Source: Escherichia coli
GTDB lineage: Bacteria; Pseudomonadota; Gammaproteobacteria; Enterobacterales; Enterobacteriaceae
NCBI RefSeq assembly: GCF_044324785.1
Contig: NZ_CP172127.1
DNA length: 64,000 bases
Strand: one strand, 5' to 3'
A model generated the notes under the pieces. The model did no database searches and was not told the origin of the DNA. It saw nothing but the letters and a program-made list of their open reading frames with translations. Within the stretch, counting starts at the first letter, position 1, and the number at the start of each line of letters is the position of its first letter. Positions 1 through 18,552 of the stretch are shown here, one piece after another. The position numbers were made by a program, and so were the translations under genes.

Positions 1-78
1 CCGAAGAATGCTCCGGGATGTTTATCCACGCCCGGTCGTGCTACCTTTTATGTCCTCACAACAAAAAAGGATATTTTC

Positions 79-297
79 ATGTCAGAGATAGCCGAACTTA
101 AAGAAGAATTAGCTAAAGTTAGAGCTGAATTACATACCCACAAGGCATTGCTCTTAACCATTCTTCGTGATCTTCCTCCTCAAAAAGATAAATTTCTCTT
201 GAGAATTGGAGCGTCCGTTAACGATCTGAACCGCCCAGATATTCAGGAGTTAGGCACACTCATTCAATTTTTGCGGTTGCTAAATAACCGCAAATAG
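79..297 (+). CDS. hypothetical small protein (72 aa)
   Basis: ORF only; weak RBS; convergent and overlapping with 260..634; no recognisable motif. Confidence 0.3.
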   Translation: MSEIAELKEELAKVRAELHTHKALLLTILRDLPPQKDKFLLRIGASVNDLNRPDIQELGTLIQFLRLLNNRK

Positions 298-634
298 CAT
301 CAACATTAAGCCGGGTGCCGTCATGTTTATTGGCGGCATCAGTAGCTATTTGTAATATTTTTCTGACGTCATCAATACTTGTTCCCCGGGTTGTTTCGCA
401 CAGACTTTTGTCAATTGCGCAGAAAACTTCAAAAACTCCCGTAGCCAATTTTTCCCGTTCATCTGCTTTCAGAGTGATGACCGGAGAATATAGCGTAGTA
501 AAGGCTTCTCTGATTTCCTGCGCCATAGCTACTGGTGATTTTGTTTCGCAAAGCTGGGTGCTGAACTGCATCCGGTCACTCAGTAGATGAGCGGCGATCA
601 CCTGAATTTGTTGCGGTAAAGATTTAAATTCCAT
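260..634 (-). CDS. hypothetical early-leftward phage protein (about 125 aa from internal ATG)
   Basis: AGGAG RBS precedes internal Met (MEFKSLPQQ...); sits leftward of the repressor as in lambdoid PL operons. Confidence 0.5.
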   Translation of the reverse strand: MEFKSLPQQIQVIAAHLLSDRMQFSTQLCETKSPVAMAQEIREAFTTLYSPVITLKADEREKLATGVFEVFCAIDKSLCETTRGTSIDDVRKILQIATDAANKHDGTRLNVDAICGYLATAKIE

Positions 635-741
635 CGTTTGGTACTCCTGACACACTGGTCTGGGTTGCCCTTATCGCCGGGTAGCGGAACGTGTTTCTGA
701 ACAACTGCCGCTGGGTAAGCGTTGTTGATGAAAGCGACTTT

Positions 742-790
742 ACAATTTGTATTTGTAATGGTCAATGTATTTTTAAAAAATAATTTGTAG
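742..790. promoter_or_regulatory. putative left operator cluster (repeated TTGTAA / ATTTGTA half-sites)
   Basis: acaatttgtatttgtaat and aatttgtag repeats left of the repressor gene, same half-site as the right operator region. Confidence 0.35.
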
Positions 791-884
791 TTAGGGGCAA
801 AAAAATATTCACTGTGTAAAGGTGTTTTTGTGTTAGGGGGAAAGTTGCATGCCAGCAGCGGCTGGCCTGGAAATTTGAACTGAA

Positions 885-1313
885 CTATTTTGTCTGGTTT
901 TTGGCTTCAAGTAGTTCTTTTAGCAGTAGATCGAAGTGCTCTCTTTTTTCTTTTAGCTCATTGATTAGTTTATTTTTTTCGCTCTCAGGCAGTCCTCTGA
1001 ATAGTTGCAGTAGAGCCTGTTCTTGTGGGGTTAGTTCTTGATTGTAATTACCGGGGTGTAGCGTGGATTCATCCAAATATTCTCCTTCATTCATGAAGAA
1101 AAAATGAACAGGGTATCCGGTCACTTTTGCTAGCTTGTCTAATTTATCTTTTCTTGGCGTTACCCCATTACACCATGCCTGAACTGATTGAGCTGTAACC
1201 CCAATATGGCGAGCTAACTCAGATTGAGACCAGCCTAAGTCTTTTAGAATCCGTTGTAGTCGGCTAGCAAAAGCCATGTTTTTCGTTTTTGTGTTCATAC
1301 CGTAAGGATACAA
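885..1313 (-). CDS. phage repressor, XRE-family HTH (CI-like, short form without S24 peptidase domain)
   Basis: HTH segment SQSELARHIGVTAQSVQAWCNG; divergent from a Cro-like gene; true start probably internal Met (1298 or 1277), possibly leaderless. Confidence 0.7.
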   Translation of the reverse strand: MYPYGMNTKTKNMAFASRLQRILKDLGWSQSELARHIGVTAQSVQAWCNGVTPRKDKLDKLAKVTGYPVHFFFMNEGEYLDESTLHPGNYNQELTPQEQALLQLFRGLPESEKNKLINELKEKREHFDLLLKELLEAKNQTK

Positions 1314-1318
1314 GGTTT

Positions 1319-1376
1319 AATTGTAGGGAGCATTGCAAATATAATTTGTAATTACAGTTATGATTTGTAATGATGG
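1319..1376. promoter_or_regulatory. putative right operator / divergent promoter region
   Basis: near-palindrome ttgtaattacag plus ttgcaat and atttgtaat repeats between divergent repressor and cro-like genes. Confidence 0.45.
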
Positions 1377-1396
1377 CGCGGACACAAGGAGTCCAT

Positions 1397-1627
1397 ATGG
1401 ATAAACAACTGCAAGACAAAATTCTTTCCGTAATGAGTCAATCAGAGTTAGGTCGGCGATTAGGGAAAAAACCACAAACTGTGAGCCTCTGGTTCAAAGG
1501 ACGGGTTCCCGGTGAAGAGGTTTTGCGCACATCTGAAGCTCTTGAATGGCGCGTGACCCCTCATGATCTTAGACCGGATCTTTACCCAAACCCAGATGAC
1601 AGCTTGCCTAAAACGGAAGCAGCTTAA
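1397..1627 (+). CDS. Cro/YdaS-like HTH regulator
   Basis: AGGAG RBS then ATG at 1397; MDKQLQDKILSVMSQSELGRRLGKKPQTVSLWFKG resembles YdaS/Cro family; first rightward gene. Confidence 0.65.
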   Translation: MDKQLQDKILSVMSQSELGRRLGKKPQTVSLWFKGRVPGEEVLRTSEALEWRVTPHDLRPDLYPNPDDSLPKTEAA

Positions 1628-1685
1628 CTGTTGGTGAGCCCCAAATCTGATTAAGCGTAATCAATTTTTAGCGACAGGAGACGCT

Positions 1686-2162
1686 ATGGAAAACCCAGAG
1701 GAATTACAAAAAGAGATTTTGACCTGGGCGGCAAGGGCAGGGCAGGAACTCGTCACGATTGAAATCTGCCGGGCCTGGTTCAGTCAGGGACGCAATGATG
1801 AGTTGAGACTACATGAATTTGAGGACGCGGACGGCAACGTGGACTGGAGAGCCATCAACAACAATCGGCAGAAAATCTTTCGCTGGTTACGTGGCGAGAC
1901 AACGGCGGCGCGCCGAAAAACTCAGGTGCTGGCCAGTGTGATGAAAGCCGTGCTACCCGCAGAACGGCGTGCGCGTCTGGAGTCGCCGGGCGATCCTGTT
2001 TTGCTGGCAACGCTGGCGGCAAAAGAAGGGGTGGAAGCGATTAACGCTGTACATCTCCACTTCGCGCCAGAGATAACTATTCAGGAAATTGACGAAGCAA
2101 TAGCGGCGCTGGTAGCGACGCGAGGGGCAGTGATAAGCACTGCGCAAGGCCATCATGCATGA
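1686..2162 (+). CDS. YdaT-family (CII-like) regulator
   Basis: follows cro-like gene as in Rac ydaS-ydaT; family assignment by recollection of the sequence pattern. Confidence 0.5.
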   Translation: MENPEELQKEILTWAARAGQELVTIEICRAWFSQGRNDELRLHEFEDADGNVDWRAINNNRQKIFRWLRGETTAARRKTQVLASVMKAVLPAERRARLESPGDPVLLATLAAKEGVEAINAVHLHFAPEITIQEIDEAIAALVATRGAVISTAQGHHA

Positions 2163-2163
2163 G

Positions 2164-2204
2164 CGCCTGACCAGCGTTTAACTTATACCGAGGAAAGACC
2201 GATG
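2164..2204 (+). repeat. conserved ~40-bp intergenic motif, copy 1 (cgcctgaccagcgt..accgaggaaagacc.atg)
   Basis: near-identical to 4599..4636; each copy lies between a stop codon and the next ATG. Confidence 0.55.
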
Positions 2205-2426
2205 TTAAGACATATTGACCGCATTACCTGGCGTAACGGCTGGCACCTGAATGGACGCCCGGCACATGTTGCAGAGATCCGCCCCATATTCGATGGCCGC
2301 GTCGCAGCTGCACGTTCTGTATGGGAAAAGTACGAAGAAGAAAAAGCGAAACTGCGTGAGCAAAATCTCTCTGGCGCTGCCTATGAGGCTGGCTGTCGCG
2401 TTCTCTCAGAGGCTTTGGGCATATGA
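2202..2426 (+). CDS. hypothetical protein (74 aa)
   Basis: ORF preceded by GAGGAAAG RBS inside the conserved motif. Confidence 0.4.
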   Translation: MLRHIDRITWRNGWHLNGRPAHVAEIRPIFDGRVAAARSVWEKYEEEKAKLREQNLSGAAYEAGCRVLSEALGI

Positions 2427-3190
2427 ACATCCTCCCGTTACTTGATAGACCCATAGCCTTCCAGAGAAGTTTTATCCGTCTTGAAATTGGCGTGACTGCC
2501 GCATTGTTTCTGTCGCAGTTGACGTACTGGACAAACAGAACAACTGACGACGGCTGGGTGTATAAAACCCAGGATGAGTGGGAAGAGGAAACAGGGCTTT
2601 CACGATACGAGCAGGAGGGCGCCCGCAAAAAACTACGTGGTCTCGGCGTCTTGCTGGAACGTAAACAGGGCTTGCCTGCCAGGCTGTACTACAAAATCGA
2701 TAATGATGTGTTGTGCCAGCTACTTACGTCCGCATACAAGGATGCGGAAAAACCACATACAGGTGAGGGGAAAACCACCAGGCCTGTACGTGGAAAACCA
2801 ACAAACATTCTTACAGAGAATACAACAGAGATTACTACAGAGATTATTACTGATGGTGAATCGGCTGACGCCGACACCCAACAACCTGCCGACCAGAGAA
2901 TAAATTATCAGGTGATACTCGATACCTATCACGAGATTTTGCCAGAGATGCCACCAGTGAAAATCCTCACTGACGGCAGAAAAAAACACCTTCGCACTTT
3001 CTGGAAAAAATTCAATTTCAATGAGTCCCGTTGGCGGGCCTATCTGGAATTTATCGGTGGCAATTGTCGCTGGATGCTGGAGGACAGGCCAAATGGCAGG
3101 GGAGGATTCTGGCGGCGTAAAAATCTTGATTATCTGATTACCGAACGCTGCTACGTTTCGGTTAAGGAAGAACGCGCAAATGATAAATAA
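2423..3190 (+). CDS. phage replication initiation / replisome organizer protein
   Basis: position immediately upstream of and overlapping DnaB-like helicase; N-terminal region resembles replication organizer proteins. Confidence 0.5.
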   Translation: MNILPLLDRPIAFQRSFIRLEIGVTAALFLSQLTYWTNRTTDDGWVYKTQDEWEEETGLSRYEQEGARKKLRGLGVLLERKQGLPARLYYKIDNDVLCQLLTSAYKDAEKPHTGEGKTTRPVRGKPTNILTENTTEITTEIITDGESADADTQQPADQRINYQVILDTYHEILPEMPPVKILTDGRKKHLRTFWKKFNFNESRWRAYLEFIGGNCRWMLEDRPNGRGGFWRRKNLDYLITERCYVSVKEERANDK

Positions 3191-4595
3191 CGCGATTGCA
3201 CTGTACAGCGTTGACGCAGAACAGGCTGTTCTGGGCTGTCTGATGCTGAATACCGACCACGACAGAACCAATGCGGTATTTGCGTTACTGAAACCGGAAA
3301 CGTTTTATATCAATGCGCATCAGGTTATCTACCGGGAGATCAAAGGATTATTTCAAGCTGATAAACCAACTGACCTGATAACACTGACCGAACTGATGGA
3401 ATCGAAGGGGCTGTATGAGCGCGTGGGGGGATTCGCATACCTGGCTGAAATGAGTAAGGCGGCGATACCGGCCTCAATGGTCAACTACGCGAAAATTGTA
3501 CGTGAAAAAGCCATTCTTCGTTACGCCGTGGAAAAGTTGAATTCTTGTCTGGAGATTATGACCCAGCCTGCAGATATGACTGCTACTGACAGGATCAGCA
3601 CCGTTCAGCAAGTGATTGGACAGGTAGCTGAACATGCCCGTACCGGGCATAAGGGCGGTTTGCGTCCGGCAAGTGAAGTCGTCGATGACTGGATAGATGA
3701 CCTTGATCGCCGTTTCAATGATCCAGCACATGCAGCCGGACTAACGCTCGGAATCGAAAGCCTTGATCGCTTAATGGCACCAAAGCAGGCGTTAAGAGGC
3801 TCATTGGTCGTTATTGGTGCCCGGCCAAAAATGGGCAAGACAGCCGCGTTTAATAAAATTGCGGTGCATTTTGCTCTGAATCATCGTTTGCCGACGCTGG
3901 TATTTAGCCTGGAAATGACTGACAGAAGTCTCATTGAACGCATGGTTGCGCAGGAAGCAAAGGTCAATTCGGAGATTTTTTATCTTGGCCCTAACGATGA
4001 ATCTGAATTGAGTCTCGCAATAGCAAAGGCGGGGGAGATTGCCGAATCCAACATGATGATTGACAGCACGGCAGGCGTAACCCTTGCGCATATTGTCGCT
4101 GAATGCCGAAAGGTTAAGCGGATGCATGGCTCGGTTGGCCTGGTGGCAATTGACTATTTGACGCTGATGAAAACCGAAGCGGCAGAACGTCGGGATATTG
4201 CGTATGGCGATATCACAACCGGTTTGAAGAACCTGGCAAAAGAGCTGGATTGTGTTGTGGTCCTGCTGACGCAACTCAACCGAAAACTTGAAGAACGAGC
4301 AGATAAGCGGCCTAACCCGAGCGACAGTAAAGATACCGGGCAGATCGAACAAGATTGCGATGTCTGGATTGGCCTCTATCGTGATGCTGTTTATAACGAA
4401 AATGCCGACCCAAATCTCATGGAAATGTTGCTACGTCTGAACCGCGAAGGACCATCGGGAACAGCCTACGCCCTGATGAAAAATGGCTCAGTTATTGATA
4501 TCAGCGATGAGGAGGTTTATCGCCGTACCAACTACCGCTCAGAAAAAAATAAACGTTATTCCCGTAGCGATAATTCTCGCACAAATGAATTTTAA
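3180..4595 (+). CDS. replicative DNA helicase, DnaB family
   Basis: Walker A GARPKMGKTAA, DnaB-like N-terminal domain, 471 aa. Confidence 0.85.
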   Translation: MINNAIALYSVDAEQAVLGCLMLNTDHDRTNAVFALLKPETFYINAHQVIYREIKGLFQADKPTDLITLTELMESKGLYERVGGFAYLAEMSKAAIPASMVNYAKIVREKAILRYAVEKLNSCLEIMTQPADMTATDRISTVQQVIGQVAEHARTGHKGGLRPASEVVDDWIDDLDRRFNDPAHAAGLTLGIESLDRLMAPKQALRGSLVVIGARPKMGKTAAFNKIAVHFALNHRLPTLVFSLEMTDRSLIERMVAQEAKVNSEIFYLGPNDESELSLAIAKAGEIAESNMMIDSTAGVTLAHIVAECRKVKRMHGSVGLVAIDYLTLMKTEAAERRDIAYGDITTGLKNLAKELDCVVVLLTQLNRKLEERADKRPNPSDSKDTGQIEQDCDVWIGLYRDAVYNENADPNLMEMLLRLNREGPSGTAYALMKNGSVIDISDEEVYRRTNYRSEKNKRYSRSDNSRTNEF

Positions 4596-4598
4596 CCA

Positions 4599-4636
4599 CG
4601 CCTGACCAGCGTGAAATAACCGAGGAAAGACCAATG
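4599..4636 (+). repeat. conserved ~40-bp intergenic motif, copy 2
   Basis: matches 2164..2204 with a shorter internal spacer. Confidence 0.55.
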
Positions 4637-5044
4637 ACCACCACTCCAGGCAAATTAGAGTACCCGTCGGACAAAGGACACATAGACGACGGTAAAAACT
4701 ATCTCGACGTCATTTTGTGGAATATGAACGTCGGGCCACGTGCGCGCACTCGCGCGGTTTTTGTGCCAAGACCTAAAGCAGGCAATTTTTCAACCCCTGC
4801 TAAGCCTGCCCGTCAGGCATCCGTAGCCGCAGCGCCAGCAGTGAAACGTAAGGGCAAAACGCACACCGGGATCGCGATTCGCAGAAATGGTGAGCGGCAA
4901 GTAAAACTCCACGAAACAGCGACAACCTGGTGTGCTTCACCGCATGAAACTTACGACAAGATAACCGGGCAGCGCATTGGTGCGCCTGGTCGCTGTCGCC
5001 TGCTGTTGAGTTCCATCACTCCGATAGCAAAGAAAGGGGCGTGA
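4634..5044 (+). CDS. hypothetical protein (136 aa), basic C-terminal half
   Basis: ORF with RBS in conserved motif. Confidence 0.45.
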   Translation: MTTTPGKLEYPSDKGHIDDGKNYLDVILWNMNVGPRARTRAVFVPRPKAGNFSTPAKPARQASVAAAPAVKRKGKTHTGIAIRRNGERQVKLHETATTWCASPHETYDKITGQRIGAPGRCRLLLSSITPIAKKGA

Positions 5045-5045
5045 T

Positions 5046-5282
5046 ATGGCCGGGCAATCAGATTACCTGCCGCCCGGCTTACCACACAACCGCGCCAAAT
5101 GGCCCCAGGAATACCAGCTTAAAGAGCACTACGACATGCGAGCGGCGACGCTGATCCGCCAACTCTTTGAGAAACGTATTCCGAGGGGAAGCGTGATTGA
5201 GCAAATCGGAATGACGCCGGATACGTACCGGGAATTTTTCAGAGAGCGTCTGAACTACTGGAGAGGGGTGATGGAGCAATGA
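5046..5282 (+). CDS. hypothetical protein (78 aa)
   Basis: tightly packed with neighbours in same orientation. Confidence 0.4.
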   Translation: MAGQSDYLPPGLPHNRAKWPQEYQLKEHYDMRAATLIRQLFEKRIPRGSVIEQIGMTPDTYREFFRERLNYWRGVMEQ

Positions 5283-5590
5283 AATACAAACGGTGGGTGC
5301 GTGCGGAAGTCGTAATCATCAAACAATGTGCGGGCAGCATGACAGTTGAACGTATAGGGCAGCTTATTGGAAGAACCGGTGCAGCGGTACGCACAAAAGC
5401 GCGCGAGCTGAAAATCTGTATGTATCTGCGGGGTAATTATCACCAGTCAGCAAAATACTGCCAGGAGGATATCGAGCTGGCAAGGGAATTACATCAGTCG
5501 GGTATTAATCGCCAGGATATCGCAGAAAAACTCGAAATGCCGATCGGAGCGGTGAATCAGTTTGTTTATTTTGAGCGGAGGATTTCATGA
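5279..5590 (+). CDS. hypothetical protein, possible HTH DNA-binding (103 aa)
   Basis: overlapping start/stop with neighbours; two HTH-like segments. Confidence 0.4.
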   Translation: MKYKRWVRAEVVIIKQCAGSMTVERIGQLIGRTGAAVRTKARELKICMYLRGNYHQSAKYCQEDIELARELHQSGINRQDIAEKLEMPIGAVNQFVYFERRIS

Positions 5591-5811
5591 AAGAACTTTT
5601 TCTGGCATTTGTGCCCCGGTTTATTAATGACCAGATCGCACTGACTGATAATGGTGAACAATATGAAATTGCCTGCAGCATGGTGGATGTGAATCCGGGC
5701 GAACGGTATGACGCGATGTGTGACCTGAAAATATTCACCTGGCTGGGTTGGGCCATTCCGTGTGGAGAACCAACAAATATTCGCCCGTTTGAGGGCAGGG
5801 AGGCTGTATGA
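5587..5811 (+). CDS. hypothetical protein (74 aa)
   Basis: ORF; stop overlaps a further 38-aa Cys-containing small ORF starting at about 5808. Confidence 0.4.
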   Translation: MKELFLAFVPRFINDQIALTDNGEQYEIACSMVDVNPGERYDAMCDLKIFTWLGWAIPCGEPTNIRPFEGREAV

Positions 5812-5998
5812 GTGAATTGAAAATACGTCGCAAGGCAATAGCACGCGTTAAAAATCCATTACCAGTGCCCGCCGAATGCCATTTTTGTGGTGGGAATGTA
5901 CGGATTGGTACGTATGTATGGTGATTGCGGAGTGACGTAAAACGAATCGTTGTGGGTGTAATATCGTCAATATCATTGGTTTCCCGGAGGGAAAGGAC

Positions 5999-6220
5999 AT
6001 GTTTGGCGATAAACTGGAGTTACCACGGAACGGGCGGATAGTGCTCTATATTTCAGATTACAAAGTAACCAGGGCTGAGGTGTTGGAACCGGAAAAACAT
6101 CTGGTCACGTTACCGGACATTATTGAGTTGTATAAGCGGGTCGGATATGTGGACTTGCATCGCGATGATGTTCCCGTTGAGTGTATGGAATGTGAACACC
6201 GGAGGTTTGAAGTTGATTGA
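5999..6220 (+). CDS. hypothetical protein (73 aa)
   Basis: ORF with GGAGG RBS. Confidence 0.4.
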   Translation: MFGDKLELPRNGRIVLYISDYKVTRAEVLEPEKHLVTLPDIIELYKRVGYVDLHRDDVPVECMECEHRRFEVD

Positions 6221-6312
6221 ATTGACTTAGAAAAAGCCCGGGGCTATAGTTTCCGCGCAGCCGCAAAATCGGTTGCCGGGATTGGCGTCCCGGATATCTA
6301 AGTGACGCATAG

Positions 6313-6331
6313 CCGCGTTAGCGGTTTTTTT
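6313..6331 (+). terminator. putative intrinsic terminator
   Basis: ccgcgttagcgg hairpin followed by a T7 run. Confidence 0.45.
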
Positions 6332-6444
6332 ATGTGTTAGGCACGGCCACATTCGCATTATGGTGGGCTGTGTGGGGGCTTCTGCGGAAGCGCCGGGTTC
6401 ACTTAGCCGGTTACGCCAACCCTGCACAGTTCACCACCAGATGA

Positions 6445-7137
6445 TTGGCGTCGCTGGTGGTGATGAAAAAAACACTAAGTGAGGCCACTGCGATGACAAT
6501 CCAAATATCTGCGGAATCCCTTTCTCCGCTACATCATAACCAACTTCCCGTCATCACTACTGAATTGCTTGCCAGTTTGTATGGCACGGAAGTAAATGGT
6601 ATCCAGCAAAACTTCAAGCGCAACATCGCCAGATTTGTCGTAGGAAAGCATTTTTTTAAGCTGGAAGGTAATGAATTACGCGACTTCAAAAACAGACTGA
6701 CAGATAGTCAGTCAGTTGCTAAACATACCCGATCCCTCATTCTCTGGACAGAACGCGGCGCAGCTCGCCATGCCAAAATGCTGGAAACAGAACAGGCCTG
6801 GGAAGTTTTCGAAAAGCTGGAAGATTGTTATTTTAGCCAGCGTCCAGAGAGGCGGAGTACAACTACCGATGACCGTACTCCCTTACGTGATGCCGTTAAT
6901 ATGCTGGTCGGTAAGAAAGGCATGATGTATCCCGATGCCTACACCATGATTCATCAACGCTTCGCCGTCTCTCACATAGAACAACTGTCACAGACGCAAA
7001 TGTTAGAGGCGATTGAATACATCCACTGCCTGCTACTCGATGAAAATCAACCAACCATTCCAGATCACCACTATCAAAAATGGAAAAGTGACCAGAATGC
7101 GCCATGTTGCCAAAGGCGAACATCTGATGACCTTTGA
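6445..7137 (+). CDS. antirepressor-like protein with ORF6N-type N-terminal domain
   Basis: ELLASLYGTEVNGIQQNFKRNIARFVVGKHFFKLEGNELRDF pattern; C-terminal 30 aa look unnatural, possible frameshift into 7013..7270. Confidence 0.5.
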   Translation: MASLVVMKKTLSEATAMTIQISAESLSPLHHNQLPVITTELLASLYGTEVNGIQQNFKRNIARFVVGKHFFKLEGNELRDFKNRLTDSQSVAKHTRSLILWTERGAARHAKMLETEQAWEVFEKLEDCYFSQRPERRSTTTDDRTPLRDAVNMLVGKKGMMYPDAYTMIHQRFAVSHIEQLSQTQMLEAIEYIHCLLLDENQPTIPDHHYQKWKSDQNAPCCQRRTSDDL

Positions 7138-7270
7138 CGCTTTCAAAGAGATCGCTGAGCGGGCAGGGTATCTGGTGATCCACAGCGACAATCTGCGAAG
7201 TATGACACTGGATAAATTGATGGTAATGGGGAAAAAGTCTGCTGTATCCGTTGCTGATTCAGCATTTTGA
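7013..7270 (+). CDS. possible C-terminal continuation of antirepressor in +1 frame, or separate small gene
   Basis: protein-like ORF overlapping the 3' end of 6445..7137 in another frame. Confidence 0.3.
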   Translation: MNTSTACYSMKINQPFQITTIKNGKVTRMRHVAKGEHLMTFDAFKEIAERAGYLVIHSDNLRSMTLDKLMVMGKKSAVSVADSAF

Positions 7271-7300
7271 CAGGTTGAATGTTTGGCGCGGTTATACTCT

Positions 7301-7377
7301 ATTTGCGCTTAAAAAGGTATTTAGTCACAACCAGCACGAGGCCGAATACTCTGTCAAAGTACCGCCCATGTAAAACT
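7301..7377. repeat. direct repeat copy A (~77 bp), degenerate copy of the 3' end of gene 10899..11504
   Basis: about 92 percent identical to 10901..10978 with a 1-nt indel. Confidence 0.8.
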
Positions 7378-7447
7378 GTAACGTATGTACTTGATGACTA
7401 AGCTGGCACCAGGTTAACACCAGGCGCCAGCTTGAAGGAAACTTCAG

Positions 7448-8371
7448 TTATTGGTTTCTGAGGAAAGCGATTCTTGAAAGGGTCATTTGCGTCTGGCAGT
7501 CGACCATTTTCTTGACTTCAGCATCTGTTCCCTGCATTGAAACTTTACCGCACATAGCATCCTTAGTTTTGATCCACTGACGCTGAGAAGGCAGCAAATC
7601 TTTTTTCTTCGCCGGGGTTAACTTGCTCCAGACGGTACTCAAATCAGAGTCGGCATTCGCAAATGCCATTCGGGACTGATCAAGGCTGTCAGCTTTTTGT
7701 GGCTGAAGTTGTGCCTGTCTCTCTATTTGCTTCTCCGCCTCATACTTAGCCTGTTCCTGCGCCCTGAGTTGCACCTGTTGTTCCGCTTCAATTTGGCTCT
7801 GTTGGGCATCCTTAGCCTGCTGGATTTTCTGCTGCTCAACGATCGGGTTGATAATAGAAAGTGATGTCAGTAAAGCGGCGCCCACTGATATCGGATTATC
7901 AGAAGAGGTTTTTACAAAAACGTTTTTCTGATCGTCGGTCGCCTGCACGGTGTAGGTGATACGTTTGGAAAAGGCGTTTGCGTTGTTCTCCAAAAACAGG
8001 CTTTCCATTTGCTTGTCGAGATTACGATTAAAATTCTTTCTGTAATCATCAGAAAGCTGGACGTATTCGTTCGCAGGTAGAGTCATCGTCACGGTCCCTT
8101 CACAAGTTTTCATTGTGCTGCCCGTGTCACTTGATGTTGTGGAGATTTCAGAGATGGCTAGTTTGATCTTGTCCAATGTGCTTCGTTTGGTCTGATTAGT
8201 GACATCAGGGTATTTATCGACCTGTTCAGAGAGTCCTTCATAAGCAGATTTTTTTAATAAATCCATAAGCGCTGACTGGGTTATTTCCGAAGAACAACCG
8301 ATCACATCTTTTTTGTTATCACAGCCTGTAAGGGCAATGGCGAGTAAGAGTACTGAGTATTTTAATCTCAT
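7448..8371 (-). CDS. lipoprotein with C-terminal DUF1311 (LprI-like) domain
   Basis: lipobox LTGC after signal peptide; Gln-rich coiled coil; C-terminal QRQWIKTKDAMCG...DCQTQMTLSRIAFL pattern. Confidence 0.55.
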   Translation of the reverse strand: MRLKYSVLLLAIALTGCDNKKDVIGCSSEITQSALMDLLKKSAYEGLSEQVDKYPDVTNQTKRSTLDKIKLAISEISTTSSDTGSTMKTCEGTVTMTLPANEYVQLSDDYRKNFNRNLDKQMESLFLENNANAFSKRITYTVQATDDQKNVFVKTSSDNPISVGAALLTSLSIINPIVEQQKIQQAKDAQQSQIEAEQQVQLRAQEQAKYEAEKQIERQAQLQPQKADSLDQSRMAFANADSDLSTVWSKLTPAKKKDLLPSQRQWIKTKDAMCGKVSMQGTDAEVKKMVDCQTQMTLSRIAFLRNQ

Positions 8372-8996
8372 GAATTCCCTTTAGAGTAAGGATTGGTTTT
8401 TAAGACGCGGTCTGTAATCAGTTCCGAGAGCTACAGTAAACAACGCTGAGCACTGAACGCATCACAGGCAAGGTAAAGGCGATATCGGCAAAGGCTGTGA
8501 AACCTTTAATTCAACAGATGGAAACGGTATGCGCAGGATCCTGTAACGACGCTCCCAAAACCGGAAACCTGTAAGGCATGTTTTCGCTGCTGAACTTAAT
8601 ATACGAACCTGCACTATCATGAACATATTTTATATCGTTATACCCCGAGTGATTGTGCCCGGCAATGGATAGTGTCCTGGAGGAACTATTTCTACTGTAA
8701 AAGGTAGACATTTAATTTCAGTGTGGAATTATTCCCTGCTGTTAATAACCATGGCTCTATATGGCACCGAGCGGACTAGTTAACTTGCCTGAAAGCCGCT
8801 ATGAGTGAGGAGCGAATATTGGCACGAGAGGATACCTGAACCATTTTTTGGACATGCGCTAAAAGCGAATGATTAGTTTTATCGGAATATTTACAGTATA
8901 CTTACAAGGCAAGCTTGGCGTGCCGTCTTGGGCGAGATTGCTTAAATTATTTTGTGGATATATCATTCAAACAAAAGATAATAAAATGAGGTTGTT

Positions 8997-9194
8997 ATGT
9001 CATATATTCGCGTAGAGAAAGATGGCCTTCAGTATGAAGCAGAATACTTCCGTAAAGAGGATATGGTCACAGTCTTTGGGGTTAGAGGAGGGCATTCCAG
9101 CGTGGTTCTAAATGGAATGACAGAAGTCGCGGCTGCTCGTACTGCGTTACGAAATCTTATTAGAGAAAATCAGGTTGATCCTCTAACTGATTAA
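8997..9194 (+). CDS. hypothetical small protein (65 aa)
   Basis: ORF in AT-rich island, GAGG RBS. Confidence 0.4.
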   Translation: MSYIRVEKDGLQYEAEYFRKEDMVTVFGVRGGHSSVVLNGMTEVAAARTALRNLIRENQVDPLTD

Positions 9195-9398
9195 AAATAA
9201 GCCATCTTAACTGAGAGCATATTTTGATATAATTTAGATTAAATCTATTTTGAAGGTTAGTTTGGGATGAGAAGATTACATCAAAACCGTTATTACTAGC
9301 AATAAGTTGTGTAAATCAAATAATACATAATCATGTGGTAACATATACTAAGCGTAGTAAAGTTTTTATATATTCCTGTAACTTTGTGAGAAACTTCC

Positions 9399-10064
9399 AT
9401 GAAAGCCGACAACTTAAGAATTATAGAGAATGGCAAATATGTTTTCGATATGTTCTTGGATACTGGTGAATTTTACTATACAAGTCATGCCTTTGACACG
9501 AGAGAAGATGCAAAAAGCTGGATGGAAGAATGGCAGATTTGGGCAAATAATGTATCGAGTGGGAAAGTAAGTAGTATTTATTATATTTTACAAGTGCCTG
9601 ATACTTGGGCCGGTTCTTCAGATAAAAATAACCCTTACTCGGGACTTTATGTGAAAATAGGGCGTTCCAATAATGTGCTAAAAAGGTTGTCTAACCTGCA
9701 GACAGGTGCATTTGGTCAATTAATATTACACGCTTTGGAACCTGGTGGTTCAGAAAAAGAAAACTATCTTCATGAAAAATTTAGCAACGAAAGACGTCAA
9801 GGTGAATGGTTTGTTTGTACTAAGGAACTTACCAAGCATATATTTACAACATGGTTTAAAAACAAAATGCTCCCACCAGAACATCAAATAAAAATAATGC
9901 AGCTCGCAGAAAGAATAGGTATTTATTCGCATGTTCATACACTAATGGGGGGGAAGCCAGACTTAGTAAACCCATCTATTAGTGAACCTTGGGAATGCGA
10001 AAAATATGTTTTGGTTGATATGATTTATAGCTCTTTAGCAAAGCAAGTTAATCATAAAAAATAA
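9399..10064 (+). CDS. T5orf172 (MUG113, GIY-YIG-like) domain protein
   Basis: YVKIGRSNNVLKRLSNLQTG ... LHEKFSNERRQGEWF matches the T5orf172 signature; unknown flanking regions. Confidence 0.6.
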   Translation: MKADNLRIIENGKYVFDMFLDTGEFYYTSHAFDTREDAKSWMEEWQIWANNVSSGKVSSIYYILQVPDTWAGSSDKNNPYSGLYVKIGRSNNVLKRLSNLQTGAFGQLILHALEPGGSEKENYLHEKFSNERRQGEWFVCTKELTKHIFTTWFKNKMLPPEHQIKIMQLAERIGIYSHVHTLMGGKPDLVNPSISEPWECEKYVLVDMIYSSLAKQVNHKK

Positions 10065-10384
10065 AGTGTTACATTTTAACCATACAATTATTGATTCACT
10101 AATGAAGAGGTGATTTAAACGTATGAAGTTTTAATAAGCTCCAAGAATATTTTGTCATACATGGGTTAAAGAGTTATATAATAATATCTGCTTCTGGAAT
10201 ACAGCAGACAAGCACCTGCAGATAAAGGTCTGCTGAGAGCGAGAAGCGGATCATACGTTGGAAGTTGTTTAGGCAAATACGTTATAAACGTATTTGATTA
10301 AATTTACTTGGATCATAGTCTTCAATAACGCTTTATTATATTGTTTTTCATGCAGCAAACAGGTTTACAGGTAGGTAATAAGCT

Positions 10385-10789
10385 ATGAGTGGATGGAAAG
10401 AGTCTTTTACATTAGCAGAACAGATACAATTAGCATTAAATTTAGGTTATGAGGCTGTACCAGATGAAGAGGCATATACTGGGGCATACTTCATTAAAGG
10501 TGGTAAGAAGTGGATCTTTAACATCATCGGTCTCAAAAAGACATTGAATATATCTTCAGATGATGAACTAAGAGGGCAGGATTATGATGTTGATATGTAT
10601 TTCGAAATTCGCCAAAATTGGGCACAATACCAAGATATGATCTTTGGAAGCGAAGATATCACTCCTTCACCTAAAAATGAACTTACTTCAATTTACCATG
10701 ACCTGCAGGTAACGGATGAACCCAGGGAAATGGTGTATCTTTCTGATGGGATGTGGCTGGATCCCAACGGACGAATTGTACAACGATAG
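10385..10789 (+). CDS. hypothetical protein (134 aa)
   Basis: ORF in AT-rich island with long AT-rich leader. Confidence 0.4.
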   Translation: MSGWKESFTLAEQIQLALNLGYEAVPDEEAYTGAYFIKGGKKWIFNIIGLKKTLNISSDDELRGQDYDVDMYFEIRQNWAQYQDMIFGSEDITPSPKNELTSIYHDLQVTDEPREMVYLSDGMWLDPNGRIVQR

Positions 10790-10898
10790 CACTCGAACAC
10801 ACTCAGTAATCGTCTATAAGGCCAGCACTTGTTACTTGGTCATTTGGGGTTGCTGGTCTTCTCCATTAAATCGACTAAAGTCTGTTCCATAGAGAGAG

Positions 10899-11504
10899 TT
10901 ACTTGCGTTTAAAAAGGTATTTTGTCACGACCAGCACGAGGCCGAATACCTCTGTCAAAGTACCGCCCATGTACAACTGGAGCGTTAAGTCTTTAAATAC
11001 AAGCCATTCAGCACCAGTGGCAAAAAATACACCATTCATTATCAAAAGCTGGCAAGCAAGGATAATAAGGAACCATTTGCCATAGCGTTTTTTTAGATCG
11101 ATTTCAGCTTCAAAATCTTTGTTGTTGAGTTGTTTGCGCTCATGCTCAGTATCAAGTGAATTCACCTGTTTCACAGATGTGAACTCGGTCAAGATTTTAC
11201 TCTCAGTACGGGTGACTTGTTGAGAGGGGGTAGGAATTGGAATTCTTTTGATTGACGCAGCTACAGCCATTTTGCGAGCTTCGGCAGCTCTTTTTCTGGC
11301 TATTCCGTGAATACGGGCAGACGGTTTTTTTGGAGCATGCGAAACCTTTGTCTGAGGTGAAGTTTCGTCAGGAGACTGAACCGGAGTTTCATCCTCCTCC
11401 GGCTCAACCTCTTCTGCTAACTGACGGTGTAGGTTGAGGGAATCCTTCAGTCGGCGTGCAACTTCCTGTTTGAAACGGCTGTTAAAATCGTCATCCGATG
11501 GCAT
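10899..11504 (-). CDS. membrane-anchored protein (charged N-terminal region, two C-terminal TM helices), partner of ImmA-like peptidase
   Basis: start 9 nt after peptidase stop, RBS inside peptidase 3' end; hydrophobic segments WFLIILACQLLIMNGVFFATGA and LVLVVTKYLF. Confidence 0.55.
   Translation of the reverse strand: MPSDDDFNSRFKQEVARRLKDSLNLHRQLAEEVEPEEDETPVQSPDETSPQTKVSHAPKKPSARIHGIARKRAAEARKMAVAASIKRIPIPTPSQQVTRTESKILTEFTSVKQVNSLDTEHERKQLNNKDFEAEIDLKKRYGKWFLIILACQLLIMNGVFFATGAEWLVFKDLTLQLYMGGTLTEVFGLVLVVTKYLFKRK
10901..10978. repeat. direct repeat copy B (~78 bp), coding for the C-terminus of 10899..11504
   Basis: pairs with 7301..7377. Confidence 0.8.
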
Positions 11505-11513
11505 TCTAAAGCG

Positions 11514-12002
11514 TTACCCCAACCTCAAGTTCTTTAAACGATAAGTCATCGCATCGTCAGATACGCCAAAATGATGCGCCATTATATAACTTGGTTGGCC
11601 GTCAGCGTGCAGTTTTCTGACCTCATCTACCGGCATCAGAAGTTCTGCTGCGAACTTGTTCGCAAAAATTTCATCAGGATGCGTTCCGGCGCTTGCGGTT
11701 TCGCCACGTAAATCAACGTACTCATATTCATCGCTATGCGATGCTTGCCGGGCGATGTAATGCCCCAACTCATGCCCACATGAAAAACGTTGACGAACTT
11801 TGTTGTCATCACTGTTTAGAAAGATCGCTGGATCTTGATCTTTTTGTTTAATCAGTGCGCCAGAAACTTTCCCAGGAAGATCGGTAATAAAAACATCTAA
11901 TCCCATGTCGTGAGCAATTTTCGCTGGATCAACAGGGAAACCACGCCCGCACCAGAACGTGTCCAGCACTCGCCGGGCGTGCTCTCTTGGGTTGGTAGCC
12001 AT
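11514..12002 (-). CDS. ImmA/IrrE-family zinc metallopeptidase (DUF955)
   Basis: HELGHY zinc-binding motif and downstream EIFANKFAAELLMP segment. Confidence 0.7.
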   Translation of the reverse strand: MATNPREHARRVLDTFWCGRGFPVDPAKIAHDMGLDVFITDLPGKVSGALIKQKDQDPAIFLNSDDNKVRQRFSCGHELGHYIARQASHSDEYEYVDLRGETASAGTHPDEIFANKFAAELLMPVDEVRKLHADGQPSYIMAHHFGVSDDAMTYRLKNLRLG

Positions 12003-12075
12003 AGCTCCTCCAGTTACTGCATTACGATTATTGGTCGAAATATAGACAACATGTTCCGTACCACATTCCTGTAAA

Positions 12076-12094
12076 AGTGCAAATTCTGCACTTC
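12076..12094. promoter_or_regulatory. palindromic operator-like site upstream of the peptidase operon
   Basis: aagtgca-aattc-tgcactt, perfect 7-bp arms, about 75-90 bp upstream of the peptidase start. Confidence 0.4.
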
Positions 12095-12435
12095 TGGTAC
12101 GATATTAACTGTTAGTAGTAAAGTCTTCCAGATAAATCACTTTAAAATCGTGTGAATTGCTTGCTTTTTACGCTGCATTGTGGATGGCTCAATGTTTCCA
12201 GTAAAAACATACATGATAATCATGACATTAGTGGTTTTTTAGGCGTCCATCTGTTTCTTAAAAAAATGGATGCCACAAGCGCCCGGATGAGAACAGGAAG
12301 GGAAGGCTATTACATGTGTGATTTATTACATCTGTAAAAAAATACAGATCTAACCTGATCTTTTCATTGAAGTTTTTCTTGGTCCTGGATAGGATCTGGA
12401 GGTTGCGAAGATTTTAGAGTCGCATCAAAGGGAAA

Positions 12436-12461
12436 GCCCTGACAGCGCCAACTGTCAGGGC
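12436..12461. other. perfect 10-bp stem hairpin (gccctgacag / ctgtcagggc) in a 567-bp non-coding stretch
   Basis: inverted repeat with 6-nt loop; T-rich flank on minus strand. Confidence 0.5.
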
Positions 12462-12569
12462 CATACAAAAACATCGGTTAATGCTTTCGTTGAGATCTCG
12501 GTTTGGGAGATTACCTCAACCGGGATCCCGTGTAAAGCATTCATTGCCGAAAATGATATAGGTCAATGA

Positions 12570-12848
12570 ATGAAACACATCTGTAAAAAGTCACATCGTC
12601 ACGACAGTATGTTTGATGTTCTTTCCGCAAATCAGGGGAACGTTGGGCGGCACAAATGTTGTGGATGTGCCTATGATAAAGGTATGTGGCACGCATTAAT
12701 TGGCGTTCCACGTGCGGTTGATGACTCTGTTTTAGGTGATTTGCCCGAAAGCCAGGCCGGGCATGTACGTCATAAAGATGCTTTTGAAGCATATAACATG
12801 GGATATGACCATGGGATGCATAAAAAAGCCTACGGCATGGCCTCATAA
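12570..12848 (+). CDS. hypothetical Cys/His-containing protein (92 aa)
   Basis: ORF followed by a clear intrinsic terminator; antisense ORF 12541..12936 judged spurious. Confidence 0.45.
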   Translation: MKHICKKSHRHDSMFDVLSANQGNVGRHKCCGCAYDKGMWHALIGVPRAVDDSVLGDLPESQAGHVRHKDAFEAYNMGYDHGMHKKAYGMAS

Positions 12849-12868
12849 CCAGGTGTAACTTATTAACT

Positions 12869-12896
12869 AACCCGCTTCGGCGGGTTTTCTTTTTTA
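12869..12896 (+). terminator. intrinsic terminator
   Basis: aacccgcttcggcgggtt hairpin followed by ttcttttttat. Confidence 0.7.
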
Positions 12897-12966
12897 TAGA
12901 ACCCTGCGATGTGAAAACGAATAATAAATTGTGCAAATAGTGCAGTTTTTATTATTCGAGGTAATT

Positions 12967-13608
12967 ATGAAAACCTTCTATGAGGGCTGGCCTGAAACTT
13001 TCGTTAGCCGGTTAGATATGTTACGGGCGTTGGATGATCGCGGTTCGACCCGGAGGCTCTATCTTGAGCGGACCGGAGCAATATTTGGCGCTCTGGCAGA
13101 AGAGATACGTACAGCCGTTGCCGGGCATCCTGAAACTGACGCGAGTGAACTTGATATCGGGCCGCTATATCGCTATTACAAACGTGGAGAAAAGGGGGAT
13201 CCGCTGGCTGACTTACTTATTAAATTGGCTCCACCAACCTGTGAACGGGTTCGTATATCTCCTGAAGTGTACACAATCCCGTATCTGTTTTTTGCACTGT
13301 TGATAGCGCAAGGCGCTGACAACGATGCCCGAGATTTTTTCAATATGATGATGCGACCGTTGATCATCGCCTACCGCTTCAAACAACTGGCGCGCTACCT
13401 TGGCACGAAGGGCGGAGGACGACCACAGCACAGATTAAAAAGTGAAGCCATTGAACTGGCTGATCGTTTTTTTACTGAAAACCCGACTGCGCCATTATCG
13501 CGTGGTGTGCAATACATATCCGGTATTTTTGTGGCGAAATACTCCGATCCACCTGCAGCCTCGACGATTAGAAAATGGTTAATTTCAATTTACAGGAGTG
13601 ATAAATAA
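12967..13608 (+). CDS. hypothetical protein (about 213 aa from internal ATG with GAGGT RBS)
   Basis: ORF 12931..13608; better start at MKTFYEGW; no recognisable domain. Confidence 0.45.
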   Translation: MKTFYEGWPETFVSRLDMLRALDDRGSTRRLYLERTGAIFGALAEEIRTAVAGHPETDASELDIGPLYRYYKRGEKGDPLADLLIKLAPPTCERVRISPEVYTIPYLFFALLIAQGADNDARDFFNMMMRPLIIAYRFKQLARYLGTKGGGRPQHRLKSEAIELADRFFTENPTAPLSRGVQYISGIFVAKYSDPPAASTIRKWLISIYRSDK

Positions 13609-13759
13609 TGACCATAAACGGTTTAATCCCCTATAAAACCGTTTAATAAAATTCACGACGTGAATATAATTGTTCATTATTCCCTCATTGTATCTGGCGT
13701 TATGACAAATGCCATAAAATACTGTATAAATGTACAGGCGGTGGCGTTAGGGGGAAGAC

Positions 13760-13939
13760 ATGAATATTCAAGAATCTATAGGCGAACTACCGGAAACATG
13801 CCGGGCTGTTATCAAGCGTAAGGACGGACACATCGTTGGTGTGCGTGTTCTGACTGATGATGAACGGATTGCCAGCCTGATGGCGTTTCTCGAGTTGGCA
13901 GAAATAGCTGGATATACTATTACACCCCCTGACGCGTAA
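13760..13939 (+). CDS. hypothetical small protein (59 aa), below ORF-track threshold
   Basis: GGGGGAAGA RBS then ATG; translation MNIQESIGELPETCRAVIKRKDGHIVGVRVL... Confidence 0.35.
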   Translation: MNIQESIGELPETCRAVIKRKDGHIVGVRVLTDDERIASLMAFLELAEIAGYTITPPDA

Positions 13940-14016
13940 AACACGGTATAATATCGGTGCTGGATTGAACACCCGGCACCATTTTCTGAACACTGCCGCG
14001 CCACCTGGAGTTAACC

Positions 14017-14613
14017 ATGGCGCAGCATTCATTTATCAGGGTATCCGGCGGTTCGCTAATACCCGCGACACCAGACACGCAACGCTGGTTGACTGAACGA
14101 GTCAAACCAGGTGCTGTTGTGTATGCAGATTTCAAACAGGCGCGTAATCCCGCGTTTCATCGTAAATTTTTCTCACTTCTCAACCTGGGCTTTGATTACT
14201 GGCATCTCTCCGGAGGGGCTATTTCTCCTGCAGAGCGCGAACTGGTTCACGGCTACGTTAAGTTACTGGCTTATTACGGTGGGCATGGTGATGTCATGGC
14301 TGAGCTGGCTGATCAGTATCTTCTCGATGAGTCGGAAAAGCGCGCGGGGAATATCAGTGCGGTTAAGTCGTTCGAGGCGTTTCGCGCCTGGGCGACTATG
14401 GAAGCTGGATTTTATGACGTTCATCAGATGCCAGACGGCAGTGTGATGCGCGTACCTCGTTCAATCTCGTTTGCTGCGATGGACGATCTTGAGTTCGGTC
14501 AACTGTATTCAGCCGTTTTAGATGTGCTGTGGAATTATATTTTGTTCCGCACGTTTGCCTCTCAGGAGGCCGCTGAAAATGCCGCCGCGCAGCTGCTGGA
14601 TTACACATCATGA
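14017..14613 (+). CDS. DUF1367-family phage protein (YbcN-like, nin-region type)
   Basis: position upstream of YbcO-like and Q-like genes; sequence pattern recalled from DLP12 ybcN homologues. Confidence 0.5.
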   Translation: MAQHSFIRVSGGSLIPATPDTQRWLTERVKPGAVVYADFKQARNPAFHRKFFSLLNLGFDYWHLSGGAISPAERELVHGYVKLLAYYGGHGDVMAELADQYLLDESEKRAGNISAVKSFEAFRAWATMEAGFYDVHQMPDGSVMRVPRSISFAAMDDLEFGQLYSAVLDVLWNYILFRTFASQEAAENAAAQLLDYTS

Positions 14614-14903
14614 AAAAAATCGACCTGAGAAAAGCTGCACGCGGTCGCGCTTGTACTGTGCGTATCCCCGGTGTGTGCAATCACAATCCTGAAACCAGTG
14701 TACTGGCTCACTACCACCTCGCCGGAACATGCGGAACAGCAATCAAACCACACGATATGCAGGGCGCTATCGCCTGCAGTGCGTGTCACGATGCTATCGA
14801 CGGACGTACAAAAACAGATTACGAGCGTGATTCCTTATTACTGATGCACACAGAGGGCGTTTTAAGGACGTTGGCCATCTGGCGTAACGAGGGATTCATC
14901 TGA
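14610..14903 (+). CDS. DUF1364-family putative nuclease (YbcO-like)
   Basis: LRKAARGR.C.VRIPGVCN.NPETSVLAH ... ACSACHD.ID closely matches YbcO of DLP12 as recalled. Confidence 0.6.
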   Translation: MKKIDLRKAARGRACTVRIPGVCNHNPETSVLAHYHLAGTCGTAIKPHDMQGAIACSACHDAIDGRTKTDYERDSLLLMHTEGVLRTLAIWRNEGFI

Positions 14904-15574
14904 TGAGTAACGAGTATTTGTTGGAATATACCCGCATAAAACTGCGCGCTGCATTGCGGGATTTGTCTGGTGGTTCTAAGGGGCAGCTGGAAGCATTGTG
15001 TGAGCACCCGCCGGCAGACAAAAACGCATATCCACGCAAACATATTCATCGTGTGCAACTGGAGGACCGGACCGTTGATGCTCTGGTTACGCCAGTTTAC
15101 GCCCTGGAAAGTTTCAGCAGACGTCGTCCCGCGCCGCCGATGAATGATTTTGAATTCGCTGATTCATCGTGGCGCCGCGCCGTGAATTCGCTCGACGTTA
15201 GCCAGCAGGCGTGGTTGCGCTATTGCTACGGTGGTCACCTGGCGTTCAAACACCAAACAGCTATTTGTGAGGCTGTCTGGAGTCGCTATAAAGGACACAT
15301 CCCCGCGTCAACTCAGAGAAAAGTAGCTAAGCGCCTGCTTTCGTTGGTGTGGTTGTCCGTGCAGGCGGTTGCAGCAGCAAATAAACGCGAGGATTTTAAG
15401 GAGATGGCTGGATCTGCGCTAGCTGGAATGTTGTCTGTTTCTCGTTCCACCTGGTGCGAAACATACTCCCCGCACTGGGTAGGAATGAAAGAGGCGGTGA
15501 GAGCACTTGATGAAATGGCACTTCTTGCAACTTTGCATCATTATCAAAACCATTTAGACGACGTTTGCGTATAA
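14903..15574 (+). CDS. late-gene antitermination protein Q-like
   Basis: position between nin-like genes and the late promoter/lysis cassette; 223 aa. Confidence 0.5.
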   Translation: MSNEYLLEYTRIKLRAALRDLSGGSKGQLEALCEHPPADKNAYPRKHIHRVQLEDRTVDALVTPVYALESFSRRRPAPPMNDFEFADSSWRRAVNSLDVSQQAWLRYCYGGHLAFKHQTAICEAVWSRYKGHIPASTQRKVAKRLLSLVWLSVQAVAAANKREDFKEMAGSALAGMLSVSRSTWCETYSPHWVGMKEAVRALDEMALLATLHHYQNHLDDVCV

Positions 15575-15577
15575 TGC

Positions 15578-15606
15578 TTGCAAAACCGAACAAAACAGGC
15601 CATATT
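15578..15606 (+). promoter_or_regulatory. putative late promoter (PR'-like)
   Basis: ttgcaa, 17-bp spacer, catatt immediately after Q stop. Confidence 0.35.
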
Positions 15607-15642
15607 AAACGCTAATTTGGTATGTTGCCAAATTTCTAAGAA

Positions 15643-15671
15643 CCTCGCCACGGCGGGGTTTTGTCGTTTCT
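15643..15671 (+). terminator. putative tR'-like terminator downstream of late promoter
   Basis: cctcgcc..ggcgggg hairpin followed by ttttgtcgttt. Confidence 0.45.
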
Positions 15672-18160: not shown

Positions 18161-18162
18161 CC

Positions 18163-18354: not shown

Positions 18355-18552
18355 GGGTAATTGGCATAGGCAATTTAACCGTATAAGTGCGCCTTCACCG
18401 GCTTCCTGCAAATAAGTGCATTTCGTAATTTATAAAGTTCTAAGAAGCAAGTCCATAAGCTTAACATTACAGCACAAACGATCTGTTTTTAGTTCTATGG
18501 GTGTTCTCTTTTTTCGGGAATATATTTTAGTAACCAGAATTAAATTCTAAAA

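Follow-up and report, generated by a model that had tools for sequence, protein, structure and literature searches.

Two reading frames at the ant locus

We analysed a stretch of 64,000 nucleotides (nt) from Escherichia coli (NCBI RefSeq assembly GCF_044324785.1, contig NZ_CP172127.1), referred to as the window, which carries an integrated prophage. The subject of this work is the antirepressor locus of this prophage, ant, on the + strand; an antirepressor is a protein that activates a dormant phage. An earlier note, made from the letters alone, had described two open reading frames (ORFs) at this place, and both are present: ORF1 (6445..7137, 230 amino acids (aa) if read from a TTG) and ORF2 (7013..7270, 85 aa), whose shared 125 nt are read in different frames. 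According to the annotation of RefSeq relatives the probable start of ORF1 is ATG 6493, and the ORF6N domain that had been recognised in it was recovered with a good score (PF10543, E = 6.6e-22, 78 bits versus a cut-off of 27.8). ORF2 (example of its peptide: HVAKGEHLMTFDAFK) lies in the +1 frame, which is open from 7013 and offers TTG 7013, ATG 7040, ATG 7097 and ATG 7127 as possible starts. Since it matches positions 199–268 of the anti-repressor family phrog_4792 (E = 2e-42), ORF2 is not a chance ORF. The locus is composed of the following parts:

6493..7065, + strand: native codons 1–191 of ant, with the ORF6N domain (aa 14–96), a helix, a linker, the helical middle domain (aa 130–182) and the start of the second linker, assigned by Pfam, phrog_4792 and an AlphaFold model
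7064..7065, + strand: junction of an 11-bp deletion, located by DNA alignments and the codon table
7066..7137, + strand: end of the truncated product, read out of frame, with 23 codons (HHYQKW...SDDL) followed by a TGA stop; the last codons are CTT TGA C
7064..7270, + strand: native codons I195–F262 of ant and the stop, now in the +1 frame, encoding a Rem-like C-terminal module, assigned by phrog_4792, phrog_340 and hhalign against Rem

The relatives CFSAN061769 and Z0117EC0036 carry at this position a gene of 789 bp encoding 262 aa, with an ATG equivalent to window position 6493. Alignment with such full-length relatives, which the earlier note had proposed, thus revealed one protein of about 262 aa across both frames, in good agreement with its suggestion of a frameshift in a single antirepressor of about 270 aa. 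In a three-way DNA alignment the window is 98–99% identical to the two relatives apart from one gap: 11 bp (ATTTTTCTTTT) are missing at 7064/7065, in a T-rich tract that encodes the second linker, and the window has GATC where the relatives have GATTTTTCTTTTATC. As an AT dinucleotide borders the missing segment on each side, the junction can be placed only to within 2 nt. The deletion takes two nucleotides of codon 191 and the codons F192-S193-F194; the D191 codon is regenerated, and I195–F262 are moved to the +1 frame. The resulting product has 214 aa, of which 191 are native and 23 are junk residues (HHYQKWKSDQNAPCCQRRTSDDL, codons 7066..7134), so that the non-native part is shorter than the tail of 30 aa first described. 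The frame change had been placed at the A-rich stretch 7072–7088, while the real site is the deletion just upstream. The A-run, 8–10 nt downstream of the deletion, is the same in intact alleles, which rules out slippage or a miscall in this run as the cause. Four nucleotide differences were found 3′ of the deletion compared to the closest intact allele. Read in the native frame, all four are synonymous, and the event is thus probably recent.

The profile of phrog_4792 ("anti-repressor") covers the intact 262-aa protein end to end (E = 3.7e-160). The intact relative spans positions 6–268 of this 268-position profile, while in the window positions 199–268 are reached only in the +1 frame; the window gene is therefore a disrupted member of the family. 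Homologues with near-full coverage from Escherichia, Salmonella, Klebsiella, Serratia, Dickeya, Photorhabdus, Xenorhabdus and Yersinia were single polypeptides in 26 of 26 cases, at identities down to 46%, and none of them was divided into two separate genes at this position. Two genuinely overlapping genes, another option raised before, are not the ancestral state, which is a single ORF as in the relatives. Taken together, 6493..7270 is very probably one prophage antirepressor gene that was inactivated by the 11-bp deletion. The change is an ordinary inactivating mutation and neither a programmed frameshift nor an A-run error, and the 214-aa product is predicted to be inactive.

Distribution of intact and disrupted alleles

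The window segment 6300..7450 was compared by megablast to 5,426 complete E. coli genomes. The region was found in 425 of them at a coverage of at least 80%, and was always annotated as a single "ORF6N domain-containing protein". A probe of 81 nt across the junction had matches in 445 complete E. coli genomes, and the 11 bp were present in all 445. A set with one genome per species gave no exact match to the 35-nt deletion junction; the allele is therefore simply not in any representative genome. Four NCBI assemblies (GCA_958309045.1, GCA_044689045.1, GCA_050406725.1 and GCA_044681995.1), 99.98–100% identical to the window, share the junction, and GCA_958309045.1 is 100% identical across window positions 1..15846 and 17176..18473. 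A public protein collection that covers NCBI, ENA and Logan lists 135 contigs with the exact 214-aa product and 159 contigs with the 57-aa downstream product. As the same junction occurs in four assemblies and the exact product on 135 contigs, the deletion is genuine and is inherited within one clone.

These data also bear on the idea that the gene is really intact and that the lesion is an artefact of sequencing or assembly. The lesion is located in a T-rich tract and is not in any complete RefSeq genome, as an artefact might be, but a loss of 11 bp is not a homopolymer miscall, and the four assemblies with the identical junction were deposited independently. Together with the record of the exact product, this makes an artefact extremely unlikely.

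A second, independent frameshift in the same tract was recorded in three other E. coli samples (L013, L014 and L015). Here, in a different allelic background, T5 is reduced to T4 at a position equivalent to window ~7064, which results in a 202-aa product and a 57-aa downstream ORF. Like the deletion, this allele was not found in the 445 complete genomes. Further recorded ant alleles are truncated (146–167 aa), and one has an in-frame deletion of 16 aa. One protein cluster with a representative of 469 aa was discarded, since it is an unrelated protein that was grouped by accident.

A programmed shift had been proposed as well. As a +1 frameshift it would connect the two ORFs, with the A-rich stretch and the 3′ end of ORF1 as candidate sites. 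ORF1 ends with CTT TGA C (7132–7138), and a +1 slip at this place would enter the frame of ORF2. The sequence is identical to CUU UGA C, the +1 shift motif of prfB. Unlike prfB, ORF1 has no Shine-Dalgarno-like stimulator before the CUU and no conserved two-frame layout; this layout occurs in 0 of 445 complete E. coli genomes and in 0 of 26 aligned homologues. The same nucleotides are ordinary in-frame T-F-D codons in intact alleles. A shift at the CUU would replace the native residues 192–218, which form the conserved β-hairpin of the C-terminal module, by 23 unrelated residues. At the A-rich stretch, a −1 slip on the A5 run would end up in the wrong frame, and for a +1 slip no cognate re-pairing is available. 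Hence, no plausible shift restores the native protein, and there is hardly any chance that recoding operates at this locus.

Architecture of the intact protein and its Rem-like C-terminal module

An AlphaFold model of the intact protein was calculated from the homologue alignment and reached a mean predicted local distance difference test (pLDDT) score of 72. Residues 1–118, 130–182 and 194–251 were ordered in this model, and linkers of low confidence were located at residues 119–127 and 186–192. The deletion follows directly after codon 191, and among the 26 aligned homologues the length of the linker varies exactly at the break point of the window. The intact protein is thus predicted to consist of the ORF6N domain, the helical domain in the middle and the Rem-like C-terminal module of about 50 aa, with flexible linkers in between. 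Foldseek found no counterpart of the full model in the PDB at E ≤ 0.001, and a profile search of the PDB sequences gave none at E ≤ 1. Since no structure matches were found, the assignment of domain functions rests on sequence families. For the N-terminal part, Ant residues 1–116 are 73% identical to AnrP of the Salmonella prophage Gifsy-1 (E = 2e-62).

The C-terminal module connects Ant to a family of small proteins. Ant residues 197–238 match phrog_340 (E = 2.8e-12), a family of ~85-aa proteins without assigned function, and ORF2 matches it with E = 4.3e-13. Rem of the Qin prophage also belongs to phrog_340 (E = 4.4e-21). In hhalign the profile of the Ant C-terminal module scored 90.6% (E = 1.3e-6) against Rem and 90.4% (E = 1.4e-6) against the C-terminus of AnrP. 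Profile match and alignment locate the core of the module to ~45 residues, which form a β-hairpin followed by an AF.E.A.KAGY helix. A word-indexed protein search with the 71-aa C-terminus was uninformative (six near-identical fragments), and an exhaustive profile search was used instead. It revealed 185 cluster representatives that carry the module. Among the best 150 of these 185, 105 are not longer than 110 aa, and 31, with lengths of 171–320 aa, carry the module at their very C-terminal end; ten of the long representatives are headed by ORF6N, KilA-N, Bro-N, pRha or P22_AR_N.

It was shown experimentally that Rem relieves repression by DicA (PMC10448788). The homology suggests the Rem-like module as the effector with which Ant binds the repressor. 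Binding and inactivation of the prophage repressor by Ant are predicted from its homology to AnrP (PMC4825925) and Rem (PMC10448788), which were both tested.

Because the detached module occurs as a natural stand-alone protein, a functional split of the gene is to be considered. The deletion would then have generated two working proteins, one composed of the ORF6N and middle domains, the other a free Rem-like protein of 76–85 aa that starts from ATG 7040 or TTG 7013. The break lies exactly at the predicted interdomain linker, and ORF2 from either start holds the whole conserved core of the module. The module mostly stands alone, as in the 105 short proteins among the best 150 cluster representatives, which include Rem (83 aa) and a 59-aa paralogue of the same prophage (see below). 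In Fels-2 and PSP3, the counterpart of the phage 186 antirepressor Tum is divided between two genes (Lemire et al., PMC3121763), and the T5-to-T4 frameshift of the three other samples hit the same tract independently. Against a functional split, the ribosome-binding sites of the candidate starts are weak or mis-spaced, with values of −5.8 to +0.3 kcal/mol versus −8.2 kcal/mol for ant and −9.3 kcal/mol for the 59-aa gene. By eye, no Shine-Dalgarno-like element could be recognised upstream of ATG 7040, and the candidate starts sit within a translated ORF. The sole downstream ORF called in the T5-to-T4 allele begins at M208 and lacks the conserved β-hairpin. All 445 complete genomes lack frameshifted alleles and thus give no indication that the split was positively selected. 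We therefore regard functional fission as improbable, and it is equally doubtful that the T-rich linker tract (ATTTTTCTTTTAT) is a recurrent breakpoint that frees an effector of the size of Rem, by the 11-bp loss in one case and by the independent T5-to-T4 change in the other. If fission did occur, the locus would represent a natural split of an antirepressor that rewires prophage induction, and not a dead gene.

Some observations weigh against simple inactivation of ant by the deletion. There are ORF6N-type antirepressors (187–199 aa) whose C-terminus is shorter or of another kind, and many contigs retain the allele in a prophage with an intact holin gene. Such persistence would also fit a split gene that is tolerated or even of use. 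Moreover, the inactivity of the truncated protein is a prediction, and repressor binding was assigned to the module through its homology to Rem and AnrP.

The RNA leader of ant

The region upstream of ant resembles loci at which an antirepressor is controlled by small RNAs. The following elements were found:

6222..6250, + strand: σ70 promoter-like site, TTGACT-17-TATAGT, with 10 of 12 consensus matches, just 5′ of isrK and aligned with the isrK promoter of Gifsy-1
6244..6296, + strand: a1/b1 targets of the C4 antisense RNA, overlapping isrK (Rfam RF03163, 52.9 bits versus a gathering score of 46.7)
6257..6331, + strand: isrK-type small RNA (Rfam RF01394, 80.4 bits versus 50), with a terminator stem at 6311–6326 followed by a T run
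6356..6441, + strand: C4-type antisense RNA, equivalent to P1 c4 and Salmonella STnc1160 (Rfam RF01695, 74.5 bits versus 45)
6360..6482, + strand: upstream ORF of 40 codons, which overlaps the C4 RNA, ends 10 nt before ATG 6493 of ant and is the counterpart of Gifsy-1 orf45 by leader alignment
6443..6484, + strand: downstream targets of the a2/b2 type for the C4 RNA (GATTGGCGTC at 6443–6452, CTGGTGGTGA at 6454–6463 and CTAAGTGA at 6475–6482), which reach the GAGG ribosome-binding site of ant

The C4 segments TCACTTAG, ACGCCAACCC and TCACCACCAG are complementary to repeats of 8–10 nt on both sides, upstream in isrK and downstream. The upstream repeats complementary to C4 segments are GGATTGGCGT (6279–6288) and CTAAGTGA (6298–6305). 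The ribosome-binding site of ant has a strength of −8.2 kcal/mol. An intact-ant relative has the identical leader, and the leader can also be aligned with that of Gifsy-1. The control region of ant in the window is intact. By homology with the isrK-orf45-anrP locus of Gifsy-1 and with P1 immI, the leader with isrK, C4 and the upstream ORF would gate translation of the antirepressor. The presence of this leader, together with the homology to AnrP and the family matches, gives good support for the name "antirepressor" that the locus had received in the earlier note.

A nucleotide search of sequenced phages found the full gene in none and matched only the C4/isrK leader (79–86% identity, many Shiga toxin (Stx) phages), and a tblastn search of sequenced phages gave no match that covers at least 80% of the Ant protein. 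The C4 part (about 6313–6467) corresponds at this level of identity to a segment in many Stx-converting and other coliphages.

The prophage repressor and a second, LexA-controlled gene

Outside the ant locus, two features of the prophage are important for the interpretation:

888..1277, − strand: DicA-like prophage repressor and presumed target of the antirepressors, with HTH_3 only and no S24 self-cleavage domain in Pfam
13720..13939, + strand: LexA-box promoter and stand-alone 59-aa paralogue of the Ant C-terminus (intact ORF 13760..13939), a putative SOS-controlled antirepressor

The repressor is 31% identical to K-12 DicA over 121 aa (BLASTP, E = 8e-14) and 100% identical to a RefSeq protein of 130 aa. 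The immunity region consists of the repressor gene, a YdaS/Cro-like gene (1397..1627, + strand) and a YdaT homologue (1686..2162, + strand), and is of the Rac/Qin type, not of the lambda type. Since the repressor is DicA-like and non-cleavable, induction of the prophage should depend on antirepressors.

A near-consensus LexA box, TACTGTATAAATGTACAG (13720–13737), overlaps the TATAAA −10 element in front of the 59-aa ORF and is conserved in a relative, and the ribosome-binding site is strong (−9.3 kcal/mol). The 59-aa ORF matches phrog_340 with E = 1.6e-20 and the C-terminus of Ant with E = 7e-6 in BLASTP; hhalign gave 96.8% (E = 2.6e-10). Its orthologue in RefSeq is labelled only as hypothetical protein. 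Neither AnrP nor Rem matched the 59-aa ORF in BLASTP, so that its links to them exist at the profile level only. The 59-aa ORF is probably an SOS-controlled antirepressor of the prophage.

A second CTGT-N8-ACAG palindrome (CTGTAAAAAAATACAG) was noticed at 12332..12347, in the stretch that separates a capP-like gene from the ORFs next to it. The presence of two of these sites in 64 kb is only weakly above chance, as 14 of 100 shuffles gave at least two.

The intact prophage appears to have two antirepressors built on a common effector fold, the first under SOS control and the second gated by RNA, and the window appears to have lost only the second. The deletion puts the Rem-like module out of frame and leaves it without a good ribosome-binding site, and this lineage would have lost the RNA-gated route of induction and kept the separate LexA-controlled Rem-like gene. 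Loss of the RNA-gated route with the SOS route being kept is the most likely interpretation of the locus.

For annotation, 6493..7270 should be treated as one frameshifted antirepressor gene, neither as two genes nor as a recoding site, and no resequencing is needed. The allele documents a small and datable step in the domestication of a prophage, in which one of two apparent induction routes was lost; the SOS route remains, and lysis and structural genes are intact in sister strains. The homology of Rem to the ~50-aa C-termini of Ant and AnrP points to this module as the repressor-binding part of many proteins annotated as "Ant". In our view, only the assignment of the Rem-like module and the layout with dual control are worth carrying forward.

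The surrounding prophage

Compared to a relative, all structural and lysis genes of the prophage are full-length with the exception of the holin gene, which is interrupted:

~15847..17175: IS3-family (IS2-like) insertion sequence (IS) element in a Phage_holin_8 gene, with orfA (15891..16301), orfB (16259..17164) and terminal inverted repeats at 15854–15886 and 17135–17167

The IS element is missing from otherwise identical assemblies with the same ant deletion, whose holin is intact. Since these sister assemblies have the deletion together with an intact holin, the lesion in ant preceded the IS insertion.

Some further genes in the window were noted. On the 3′ side of ant, a convergent lipoprotein-like gene of the LprI family (lysozyme inhibitor; 7448..8371, − strand) is followed by a gene for a nuclease of the T5orf172/GIY-YIG type (9399..10064, + strand), and the stretch with these genes varies between related prophages. 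A 162-aa metallopeptidase of the ImmA/IrrE type (Peptidase_M78) is encoded at 11514..12002 on the − strand and matches capP in PADLOC (E = 1.6e-25). Directly 3′ of this capP-like gene and on the same strand, a 201-aa protein without family match is encoded (10899..12002 region); no CapH-like helix-turn-helix (HTH) partner was found adjoining the capP-like gene. The capP-like gene and its 201-aa neighbour may represent a damage-responsive accessory or defence pair. The right end of the prophage adjoins zinT (43984..44634), which fits the E. coli chromosome, and the small RNA genes rseX (52194..52283, − strand) and DsrA (60619..60705, + strand) are located to the right of the prophage.

Comparison with known systems

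The closest parallel to the ant locus is isrK-orf45-anrP of the Salmonella prophage Gifsy-1, which was described by Hershko-Shalev et al. 2016 (PMC4825925). In Gifsy-1 the short IsrK opens a read-through mRNA, orf45 is translated, translation of AnrP is coupled to it, and AnrP induces the prophage (PMC4825925). Both loci have the same elements in the same order, namely a promoter, isrK with its terminator, a C4-like RNA over a short ORF and an ORF6N antirepressor gene, and the Gifsy-1 leader aligns base for base with the leader in the window. They differ in several aspects. AnrP has 187 aa, whereas intact Ant has 262 aa and contains an additional helical middle domain (residues ~130–182). The Gifsy-1 locus is located directly downstream of Q, while the ant locus lies ~7.8 kb upstream of the Q antiterminator, and ant of the window is broken by the 11-bp deletion.

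The immI region of P1 and P7 (c4 antisense RNA, icd, ant1/ant2) likewise combines a C4 RNA, flanking target repeats, a short ORF and an antirepressor gene. Coupling through icd is part of the control in P1 immI. Synthesis of Ant in P1 is repressed by the c4 RNA (PMC8546580). P1 is a plasmid prophage with the C1 repressor, whereas the prophage in the window is an integrated hybrid of lambdoid type with a P2 tail and has a DicA-like repressor.

With the Rem/DicA system of the Qin prophage in K-12 the window has phrog_340 in common, which includes Rem, the C-terminal module of Ant and the 59-aa ORF, and the repressor is homologous to DicA. Rem is a free protein of 83 aa, for which the inducing signal is not known, whereas the module of Ant is fused to the ORF6N and helical domains and is under RNA control.

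The LexA-controlled candidate of Gifsy-1 (LT2) belongs to a different family (phrog_4847) and is therefore an analogue and not a homologue of the 59-aa gene. The same logic is found in GfoA/GftA of the Gifsy prophages (PMC3121763) and in Tum of phage 186: a short, non-cleavable repressor is inactivated by a small antirepressor that is transcribed from a LexA-box promoter outside of the immunity region.

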